Positions 13,420 through 15,424 of a stretch of DNA of 64,000 nt are shown here, in pieces. The translations under genes were made by a program, and so were the position numbers. The notes beneath the pieces were generated by a model. It saw only the letters and a program-made list of their open reading frames with translations. It was not told the origin of the DNA and searched no databases. Where the stretch lies: the IMG/VR virus record IMGVR_UViG_2778261540_000003; one strand, given 5' to 3'. Numbering within the stretch: position 1 is the first letter of the stretch; each line of letters begins with the position of its first letter. The DNA comes from a virus. Taxonomy: Duplodnaviria > Heunggongvirae > Uroviricota > Caudoviricetes.

Positions 13420-14459
13420 AAAAACCTCTCGTCACCCGTAATGACATAGCCGAAGCGATCGCCCTGCATACTGCCTGTATGCCGACACGGGAGATCCCCG
13501 GCGCAATTGCCAACTATTTCATGATAACCAGACGTTTTTATACCCGAACAGATAAGGCTGTGATCAACAAGCTACTGATAGCCGAGATCAGGGATTATTT
13601 GATTGAACAAGGACGTCTACGTTACGCAACAGTGGCAGCAGAAATGAGAAAGGAGGCACATAGAATGACCGGTAATAATTTGAATGTTGAAAAAACAGCA
13701 CCTGTTACGTCAGCTACGCCAGCACCAGCCGTGAATATCATCCCCAACACCGGAGACACAATCGACAGCCTGACACTGTTAAAGATGGTCAATGAAGCGC
13801 GTAAGTTATGTGGGGAACCAGAGGTTCGGAACAACAAATTCATCGAAAAAATACTCGACGAATTAGAAGGTGAGGACGGTTACACAAAAAGTGCAACCGT
13901 GCCGCCAGGTGGCGGTACGCCTATGGTTGTCATAACCATGACCTACAAACAAGCCCTGCGAGTCGCCGCACGCGAATCAAAAGCCGTCCGCCGTTCGCTG
14001 ATCGACAAACTGGAAGAATTGCAGCAGGCAAACTCCCCTACCCCATCGATCCCCCAAACATTACCAGAAGCTCTACGCCTGGCTGCCGAGTTAGCAGAAC
14101 AGAAAATGCAGCTGGAACAACAGCTGGTGGCCGCTGCCCCTAAAGTCGATTTTGCCGACCGGGTATCAGTGGCTAATGGAATCCTGATCGGGAACTTTGC
14201 AAAGGTCGTTGGACTTAAGCAAAACGCCCTTTTCTCATGGTTGCGCCAGAACGGCATTCTCATGGCTTTTGGTGCGCGCAAAAACGTACCGCGCCAGCAG
14301 TATATTAACGCCGGGTATTTCACAGTGAAAGAAGTGGTGCTGGATGATGAAAATGGCTACCAGATACGGCTGACGCCCCAATTAACGGGTAAAGGCCAGC
14401 AGTGGTTAACTCGCAAGCTACTTGATGCTGGTTTGTTAAAACCAGTAGCAATAGGTTAA
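13416..14459 (+). CDS. ant: Antirepressor Ant
   Basis: 347-aa ORF downstream of the c4/icd leader; C-terminal domain (PEALRLAAELAEQK...GKGQQWL) is shared with KilA. Confidence 0.7.
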   Translation: MKKPLVTRNDIAEAIALHTACMPTREIPGAIANYFMITRRFYTRTDKAVINKLLIAEIRDYLIEQGRLRYATVAAEMRKEAHRMTGNNLNVEKTAPVTSATPAPAVNIIPNTGDTIDSLTLLKMVNEARKLCGEPEVRNNKFIEKILDELEGEDGYTKSATVPPGGGTPMVVITMTYKQALRVAARESKAVRRSLIDKLEELQQANSPTPSIPQTLPEALRLAAELAEQKMQLEQQLVAAAPKVDFADRVSVANGILIGNFAKVVGLKQNALFSWLRQNGILMAFGARKNVPRQQYINAGYFTVKEVVLDDENGYQIRLTPQLTGKGQQWLTRKLLDAGLLKPVAIG

Positions 14460-14537
14460 CAAAAGAAAAAAACCTGCCAGCAAACTGGCAGGTTTCTGAG
14501 CAGATCGTCCAACCCGATCTGGATCGAGTCAGAAAAA

Positions 14538-14554
14538 TTTGCTCTAATAAATTT
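14538..14554 (+). promoter_or_regulatory. C1-operator-like site controlling kilA-repL
   Basis: TTTGCTCTAATAAATTT, 16/17 match to the operator motif, in the ant-kilA intergenic region. Confidence 0.7.
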
Positions 14555-14623
14555 CGTTTTCTAAGTGCAAAGAATCACCATTTCGAGCTGGTGATTGAAG
14601 GTTGATGCAAATTTGGAGAAAAA

Positions 14624-15424
14624 ATGCAACAAACATTCAATGCGGATATGAATATATCAAACCTTCATCAAAATGTCGATCCTTCAACCACTCTGCCTGT
14701 TATTTGTGGTGTTGAAATTACGACCGACCGCGCTGGCCGTTACAACCTTAATGCTCTACACAGAGCGAGCGGACTCGGTGCCCATAAAGCGCCAGCTCAA
14801 TGGCTAAGAACGCTGTCAGCCAAACAGCTCATCGAAGAGCTTGAAAAAGAAACTATGCAGAATTGCATAGTTTCGTTCGAAGGCCGTGGCGGCGGCACTT
14901 TTGCCCATGAATTGCTCGCAGTGGAGTACGCAGGCTGGATTTCTCCCGCGTTTCGGCTGAAGGTAAACCAGACATTTATCGACTATCGAGCCGGAAGATT
15001 ACAACCTGCTATTCCGAAGAGCCTCCCAGAAGCTCTCCGTTTGGCTGCTGACCTGGCAGAGCAAAAGCAACGGCTGGAGCAAAAAATGCTGATGGATGCA
15101 CCTAAAGTCGAATTCGCCGAACGCGTTGCTACCGCCAGCGGGGTTCTAATCGGCAACTATGCCAAAGTGCTCGGCCTGGGCCAAAACTATCTCTTCACCT
15201 GGTTGCGTGATAACGGAATTCTGATCGCAACCGGTGAACGCAGGAACGTCCCCAAACAAGAATACATATCCCGTGGGTATTTCACCCTTAAAGAAACCGT
15301 GATCGATACAAGCAATGGAAGCAGGATTTCTTTCACGACTCGTATAACCGGCAAAGGTCAGCAGTGGCTGATGAAGCGATTGCTTGATGCTGGTGTGCTG
15401 GTACCTGTCGCGGCAACGCGCTAA
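14624..15424 (+). CDS. kilA: KilA (KilA-N domain protein)
   Basis: N-terminal KilA-N-like domain (RYNLNALHRASG...FEGRGGGTFAHELLAVEYAGWISPAF); C-terminal domain homologous to Ant. Confidence 0.75.
   Translation: MQQTFNADMNISNLHQNVDPSTTLPVICGVEITTDRAGRYNLNALHRASGLGAHKAPAQWLRTLSAKQLIEELEKETMQNCIVSFEGRGGGTFAHELLAVEYAGWISPAFRLKVNQTFIDYRAGRLQPAIPKSLPEALRLAADLAEQKQRLEQKMLMDAPKVEFAERVATASGVLIGNYAKVLGLGQNYLFTWLRDNGILIATGERRNVPKQEYISRGYFTLKETVIDTSNGSRISFTTRITGKGQQWLMKRLLDAGVLVPVAATR

Follow-up and report, generated by a model that had tools for sequence, protein, structure and literature searches.

KilAC domains of Ant and KilA at the border of immI and the lytic replicon of bacteriophage P1: two old copies and a chimeric KilA

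The ant-kilA locus and its shared domain

The window analysed here, a 64,000-nucleotide stretch of the IMG/VR virus record IMGVR_UViG_2778261540_000003, carries the gene for the antirepressor Ant with the gene for KilA next downstream, and our subject is the domain that the two proteins have in common at their C-termini. Over 4.1 kb around ant-kilA the DNA matches bacteriophage P1 records at 100% identity and P7, RCS47, SJ46 and other P1-like phages at 96-98%. As annotated in P7, the features run in the order C1 operator, c4 antisense RNA, icd, ant1 and ant2 (which share a frame), second C1 operator, kilA and repL. The immI gene order is complete in the window, with the C1 operator, the C4 RNA and its a/b targets, an icd that overlaps ant1, and ant2 in frame within ant1 (Table 1). 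The gene kilA is part of the kilA-repL lytic replicon operon, which adjoins immI and does not lie inside it (PMC6906374; P7 annotation). We are highly confident that the locus is immI of P1, the c4-icd-ant1/2 operon, with the kilA-repL lytic replicon after it, and that Ant and KilA are modular regulators, each consisting of a variable N-terminal module and a KilAC domain; as part of the same reading, the two KilAC copies are old paralogues held under purifying selection, KilA is a domain-swapped protein, and KilAC would serve both proteins as a common effector or interaction module.

The first-pass annotation of this DNA had proposed that the C-terminal 140 or so residues of Ant and KilA are homologous and that their N-termini are unlike, and both parts of that proposal hold. 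BLASTP aligns the two proteins with E=3e-65 and 49% identity over 202 columns, and within this alignment Ant 209-345 pairs with KilA 127-263 without gaps, at 65% identity (88/136). Set against a background of 500 residue shuffles, the C-terminal 140 aa reach a Smith-Waterman score of 477, far above the shuffled maximum of 51 (mean 28.7, sd 4.8; z=93), while the N-terminal parts score 26 against 27.8±4.5 for the shuffles (z=-0.4). Assignment with hidden Markov models (HMMs) places the same Pfam family, PF03374 (ANT / KilAC), in both proteins: at residues 234-336 of Ant with 106.4 bits and at residues 152-254 of KilA with 112.2 bits, about four-fold above the gathering score of 25.3 bits in each case, and end to end in both (profile positions 1-106 of 108). 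A search of the whole window with the domain HMM returns these two copies only. PHROG 63, 9438 and 130 ("anti-repressor") likewise match Ant and KilA, no NCBIfam model matches either protein, and PF04383 (KilA-N) scores above its cutoff in KilA and not in Ant.

Conservation between the two proteins reaches about 25 residues N-terminal of the PF03374 model, into a junction motif and the start of a long helix, and the shared stretch of about 137 residues runs from this junction motif through the long helix, about 35 residues in length, to the KilAC core. The motifs originally quoted for the alignment, PEALRLAA(E/D)LAEQK, N(A/Y)LF(S/T)WLR(Q/D)NGIL and GKGQQWL, are present; a fourth, GILI, occurs in Ant only, the KilA counterpart being GVLI. 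The span first given for the similarity, 14028-15424, comprises Ant residues 205-347, the intergenic region with its C1 operator and the entire kilA gene. PF03374 is reportedly the KilA-C domain of Iyer, Koonin and Aravind (2002). The domain common to Ant and KilA is the known KilAC domain, already present in the literature and in databases; its recognition from the letters of the window was correct and is not new. KilAC is named after KilA itself. The definition of the domain comes from the C-terminal part of P1 KilA (PMC5944126; bioRxiv 10.1101/2024.01.05.574328), and it is described as highly mobile, riding on N-terminal domains such as KilA-N and Bro-N, and as linked to Ant1/Ant2 of P1 and P7 (PMC5944126; PMC9043618; bioRxiv 10.1101/2024.01.05.574328).

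The further statement that both genes are operator-controlled agrees with what lies upstream of each, a C1-operator-like site before c4-icd-ant and another before kilA, both with P7 counterparts annotated as C1 operators (Table 1). Across the window there are 14 C1-operator-like 17-mers, against 0.28 expected. The 12 beyond this locus (0-3 mismatches) lie at 28740, 32016/32027, 42252, 45876/45925, 48017, 58299, 60813, 62572, 63036 and 63119, the pairs 32016/32027 and 45876/45925 being closely spaced or overlapping; scattered sites of this kind are the expected dispersed C1 regulon of P1. At kilA there is in addition a minus-strand promoter, predicted within the first codons of the gene, that points across the C1 operator toward the hairpin between ant and kilA. 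Promoter and hairpin together would yield an antisense transcript of roughly 150-200 nt, and the predicted position of the promoter fits that of "ask", which the P1 gene table lists as an antisense control element of kilA (PMC10695390).

Table 1. Features of the ant-kilA locus, with positions counted from the first letter of the window
Feature	Position	Strand	Basis and remarks
C1 operator-like site upstream of c4-icd-ant (Op51 of P1; Op(c4) in the P7 annotation)	12869-12885	+	2 mismatches to the consensus ATTGCTCTAATAAATTT; equivalent P7 site annotated as C1 operator
a1/b1 targets of the C4 antisense RNA	12946-12998	+	Rfam RF03163, 55.5 bits (gathering score 46.7)
C4 antisense RNA, represses icd/ant	13066-13151	+	Rfam RF01695, 70.8 bits (gathering score 45); P7 annotation
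icd, overlaps the start of ant1	13198-13419	+	Open reading frame (ORF) of 73 aa; position and length as in the annotated icd of P7
ant1, antirepressor Ant1, 347 aa	13416-14459	+	ORF; 100% identical to P1 records; PHROG 63 "anti-repressor Ant", E=1.8e-105
ant2, internal in-frame start at Met84 of Ant1, 264 aa	13665-14459	+	Annotated in P7 249 nt past ant1 and in frame with it; residue 84 is Met
Ant middle domain, about residues 109-206	13740-14033	+	No Pfam family; a divergent module, probably Rha-like
Ant copy of the shared module, residues 209-345	14040-14450	+	Junction motif IPQTLPEALRLAA, long helix, KilAC core; alignment to KilA, PF03374
Perfect 13-bp hairpin between ant and kilA, terminator-like	14468-14497	.	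Terminator scan; minus-strand T-run
C1 operator-like site upstream of kilA (Op53 of P1; Op(rep) in the P7 annotation)	14538-14554	+	1 mismatch to the consensus; P7 equivalent annotated as controlling kilA and repL
kilA, 266 aa	14624-15424	+	ORF; annotated KilA in P1 and P7 records
Predicted antisense sigma-70-like promoter within the 5' end of kilA	14651-14679	-	Promoter scan, 10/12 match, extended TG
KilA-N domain of KilA, residues 27-123	14702-14992	+	Pfam PF04383, 75.4 bits (cutoff 23.8)
KilA copy of the shared module, residues 127-263	15002-15412	+	Junction motif IPKSLPEALRLAA, long helix, KilAC core; alignment to Ant, PF03374
repL, lytic replication initiator, downstream in the kilA operon	15454-16299	+	ORF; annotation

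The two halves of KilA and the build of Ant

The relatives of KilA, drawn from a search with 1,574 matches, do not tell one story for the two halves of the protein. Those closest in the KilA-N domain, from Serratia, Salmonella, Klebsiella, Brenneria, Xenorhabdus and Aeromonas, are 63-84% identical to P1 there, and yet the KilAC domains of these same proteins are only 31-45% identical to that of P1 KilA (KilA-C). The better matches to KilA-C, at 63-72% identity, are the Ant-type KilAC domains, including that of the Ant of about 335 aa in Salmonella P1-like elements, and the KilAC domains of proteins that join Rha (PF09669) to KilAC. A neighbour-joining tree of 37 KilAC domains, with support counted by bipartition over 300 bootstraps, separates P1 KilA-C together with the Ant-type and Rha-type copies from all the KilAC domains of the KilA-N relatives in 100% of replicates; inside the Ant/Rha-type clade, the Ant copies come together in 78%, and KilA-C falls among them in only 42%. 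The switch in relatedness is visible in the alignment at KilA residues 122-127. Since the near relatives of its KilA-N domain carry distant KilAC domains, and since KilA-C belongs to the Ant/Rha-type clade, P1 KilA is by these comparisons a chimera, in which a KilA-N domain has been joined to a KilAC of the Ant/Rha type.

KilAC is C-terminal to a variable module in both P1 proteins, KilA-N in KilA and the probably Rha-like middle domain in Ant, and homologues with KilA-N, Rha and Ant-type N-termini sit on one KilAC clade. At the joint lies the motif IPQ/K-x-LPEALRLAA, which occupies residues 212-224 of Ant (14049-14087) and residues 130-142 of KilA (15011-15049). As IPQ[ST]LPEALRLAA it marks the boundary between N-terminal module and KilAC across all three N-domain types, KilA-N, Rha and Ant-type, and it recurs in a series of relatives (P0013-P0015, P0030, P0104, P0111, P0038, P0053, P0110, P0114, P0118, P0037, P0064 and P0077), being kept even where the KilAC core has no more than 31-37% identity with that of P1. 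With the motif present on three types of N-terminal domain and on divergent KilAC cores, the junction is more conserved than either of its flanks; it may have a function of its own or be a site at which domains are preferentially swapped.

The N-terminal part of Ant has a composite structure of its own. In the AlphaFold2 model, Ant1 begins with an extension, helical at residues 8-86 and absent from Ant2, that is followed by a disordered linker (87-108) and a compact middle domain (112-206) with a predicted local distance difference test (pLDDT) score above 90. Residues 1-214 match no Pfam family even at E<=10. When 1.8 billion representative proteins were searched with Ant residues 1-207, 294 matched at E<=0.001, and most of the 150 listed align to the middle domain; in another homologue search, the best 120 relatives of the Ant N-terminus were near-identical P1-like Ants only. 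The representative-protein search shows the extension and the middle domain to be separate evolutionary units. Many proteins of some 230-250 aa begin with the middle domain, which is joined to KilAC in 16-19 of 60 sampled relatives and was found once with T5orf172/MUG113. The extension (residues 1-86, 13416-13673) also occurs as short stand-alone proteins, such as P0245, P0246, P0253 and P0256 (112-135 aa), and at the N-terminus of longer, different proteins (P0254, 370 aa), and hence can be taken as a module in its own right.

As for the identity of the middle domain, 20 of 60 relatives show matches to Phage_pRha (PF09669) that stay below threshold (best E 0.009), and P1 Ant itself has no match to PF09669. 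In profile comparison by hhalign, the middle domain aligns with the Rha domains of six Rha-KilAC proteins over 91 columns with a probability of 79% and E=1.6e-5, and with KilA-N at a probability of 0.4%. The Ant middle domain is probably, by these profile matches, a divergent Rha-like module, and Ant2 is in consequence probably a divergent protein of the Rha-like plus KilAC type. A separate candidate, homology of the middle domain with KilA-N and with it full-length paralogy of Ant and KilA, was ruled out by the hhalign result for KilA-N, the N-terminal z of -0.4 and the absence of a Pfam match in the Ant N-terminus.

Both genes also exist in shortened form. Many P1-like elements (contigs of 85-109 kb) carry alleles whose N-terminal part is 96-100% identical and which have no KilAC: for KilA, proteins of 166-199 aa with KilA-N only (P0002, P0004, P0007 and P0008), and for Ant, proteins of 238-267 aa without PF03374 (P0121, P0125, P0126 and P0130).

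Function and age of the KilAC copies

What the shared domain does in P1 has to be approached through the two proteins that carry it. Expression of KilA kills the host (PMC8201110; record annotations), Ant antagonises C1 in an Ant1/Ant2/C1 complex (P7 annotation), and ant1 and kilA are the most highly expressed genes of P1vir (PMC8201110). By analogy with Phi11 Gp07, CreP and AriS, KilAC in P1 is probably an effector or interaction module, and the phrase "effector or targeting domain" with which it was first labelled was a reasonable guess. On this model the N-terminal modules would give Ant and KilA each its own specificity, and KilAC would be the effector or protein-interaction module common to both; its effector activity would offer an explanation for host killing by KilA, and the KilAC half of Ant would take part in forming the Ant1/Ant2/C1 complex or have a host-directed activity. 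Several points weigh against this picture of Ant and KilA. The functions reported for KilAC in other phages disagree, a block of division in some and inhibition of the SOS response in another, with no single target; the top matches of the predicted structures in the PDB are winged-helix DNA-binding proteins, at non-significant values (E>0.1); and the Rha-like assignment of the Ant middle domain lies below the Pfam thresholds.

The structural matches bring up a different view of the domain, namely that KilAC is a winged-helix-like DNA-binding domain, that Ant and KilA are two-headed DNA-binding regulators, and that toxicity comes from binding to host DNA. The AlphaFold2 models average a pLDDT of 82.8 in Ant and 78.6 in KilA, and for the module itself the value is about 90 in both proteins. 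In Ant the long helix runs from 216 to 252 and leads into a pair of short helices, a beta-hairpin, a further hairpin that is long, and a helix at the end; in KilA, with the long helix at 134-170, the elements and their order are the same, save that the first hairpin of the KilAC core is not predicted. In favour of the DNA-binding view, the predicted core consists of helix, helix and beta-hairpin, nearly all of the top PDB matches are winged-helix proteins (TFIIE, MarR, PadR, RTP, Z-alpha and RacA), and some homologues are named "DNA-binding protein" in databases. All of these PDB matches, however, have E>0.1 and low TM-scores: Foldseek with the full-length models of both proteins returned none from the PDB at E<=0.001, uncropped models being probably less sensitive. 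A sequence search of the PDB found nothing for KilA at E<=1 and for Ant only noise (prefoldin, angiotensinogen), and the Foldseek matches in BFVD are KilAC/antirepressor proteins. Moreover, experiments on homologues indicate an action on division and on the SOS response, and one such study favours inhibition of RecA over operator binding (PMC9043618). We consider the DNA-binding view improbable.

Much the same standing can be given to the proposal that KilAC is a C1-binding module and KilA a second antirepressor under C1, which would titrate C1 once Ant has derepressed Op53 and so lock in lytic growth through a feed-forward loop. In its favour, the Ant1/Ant2/C1 complex is on record for P7, KilAC is the sole module that Ant2 and KilA have in common, kilA stands directly behind a C1 operator, and KilA as a possible second antirepressor is raised in a personal communication from Lobocka, cited in the study that found the top expression of ant1 and kilA in P1vir (PMC8201110). 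Against it, KilAC occurs in many phages with unrelated repressors, and even in the single-domain toxin CreP (PMC9043618; bioRxiv 10.1101/2024.01.05.574328), and knock-down of ant1, ant2 and kilA leaves the plating of P1vir unaffected (PMC10695390), an assay that says little about lysogens. The proposal is unlikely in our view. If KilA were a second antirepressor, Ant would lift C1 repression, KilA would be made and more C1 would be neutralised, and the immI circuit would be coupled directly to the lytic replicon. A variant that we rate slightly lower still has the helix and KilAC forming an oligomerisation or C1-binding surface, with KilA either a second antirepressor or a partner in mixed complexes with Ant1/Ant2.

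The remaining question is whether, in the P1 lineage, one KilAC segment arose as a local copy of the other, in either direction between ant and kilA. The two genes are neighbours with the same orientation, their KilAC domains fall in one subclade with 100% bootstrap, and the junction motif is common to both, all of which such in situ copying would account for. However, the two segments share only 63% of their nucleotides and 38% of their third positions, the proportion of synonymous differences (pS) is 0.79, which is saturated, the nonsynonymous distance (Ka) is 0.28, and the longest identical run is 12 nt. In addition, Ant-C of P1 is 72-75% identical to the Ant-C of Salmonella P1-like elements, against 65% to KilA-C of P1 itself, KilA-C is about equally far from Ant-type and Rha-type copies, and the Salmonella P1-like elements have icd-ant without an adjoining kilA. 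In situ copying is accordingly a doubtful explanation, conceivable only as a very old event. Synonymous saturation and low DNA identity mean that the copies are old and do not stem from a recent duplication, and to judge from these distances the two P1 KilAC segments are old paralogues under purifying selection and would not serve as a substrate for homologous recombination. Recent duplication and gene conversion between ant and kilA were considered separately and are excluded by the saturated synonymous sites, the 63% identity and the 12-nt longest run. As to the "domain shuffling within the immunity region" of the first-pass annotation, the shuffling is real, in the form of the chimeric KilA with its 100% bootstrap, and the location is not supported: an event in situ in immI is not borne out, given the saturated synonymous sites, the closeness of Ant-C to its Salmonella counterparts and the place of kilA in the lytic replicon. 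Finally, the notion that Ant and KilA resemble each other by chance or through biased composition is refuted by the shuffling result, the BLASTP E-value and two scores about four times the Pfam gathering score.

The Salmonella elements deserve a word of their own. In three Salmonella enterica contigs of about 83-86 kb (L002-L004), which represent more distant P1-like elements, positions 4783-7086 hold an icd-like gene and an ant of 334 aa, and then toxin-antitoxin genes of the Gp49/HI1420 and PrlF-like types. The ant product is 54% identical to P1 in Ant-N and 72% in KilAC. After icd-ant, at that position, kilA-repL-rlf is absent from these elements, and thus this position can hold something other than the lytic replicon module.

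KilAC proteins in other phages

As a discovery, a shared domain in Ant and KilA is minor. The points added here are the chimeric origin of the C-terminal half of KilA, the great age of the two copies and the selection acting on both, the probably Rha-like middle domain of Ant, and the conservation of a junction motif across KilAC subtypes. P1 is a classic model phage, and Ant and KilA offer an easy route to learning the role of a very widespread module.

Compared with the PF03374 KilAC domain as defined in Pfam, both P1 copies are identical in kind, with no difference of substance. The comparison with individual proteins is more instructive. Phi11 Gp07 (Bro-N plus KilAC) and the Acinetobacter protein CreP (KilAC only) are like P1 KilA in having a C-terminal KilAC and in being toxic on expression, and in both of them KilAC alone is sufficient for filamentation (Phi11 Gp07, PMC5944126; CreP, bioRxiv 10.1101/2024.01.05.574328); they differ from KilA in the N-terminal module, which is Bro-N or none, and in their hosts. 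The Listeria phage protein AriS (AntA/AntB plus KilAC) is likewise an N-terminal module followed by KilAC, the N-terminal domain acting on the phage and KilAC on the host. In AriS it is KilAC that inhibits the SOS response, and relatives of AriS swap AntA/B, Bro-N and pRha as N-terminal domains (PMC9043618). P1 Ant and KilA are not known to have such an activity, and their N-terminal domains are KilA-N in KilA and, in Ant, the probably Rha-like domain together with the Ant1 extension. Enterobacterial prophages encode proteins that join Rha (PF09669) to KilAC (P0038, P0053, P0108-P0110 and P0118); the KilAC domains of these proteins are 63-70% identical to both P1 copies and fall in one clade with them, and the junction motif is the same. 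Their architecture is probably that of Ant2; Ant differs from them in a middle domain that stays below the Pfam threshold for Rha, and Ant1 in the 86-residue extension that it adds.

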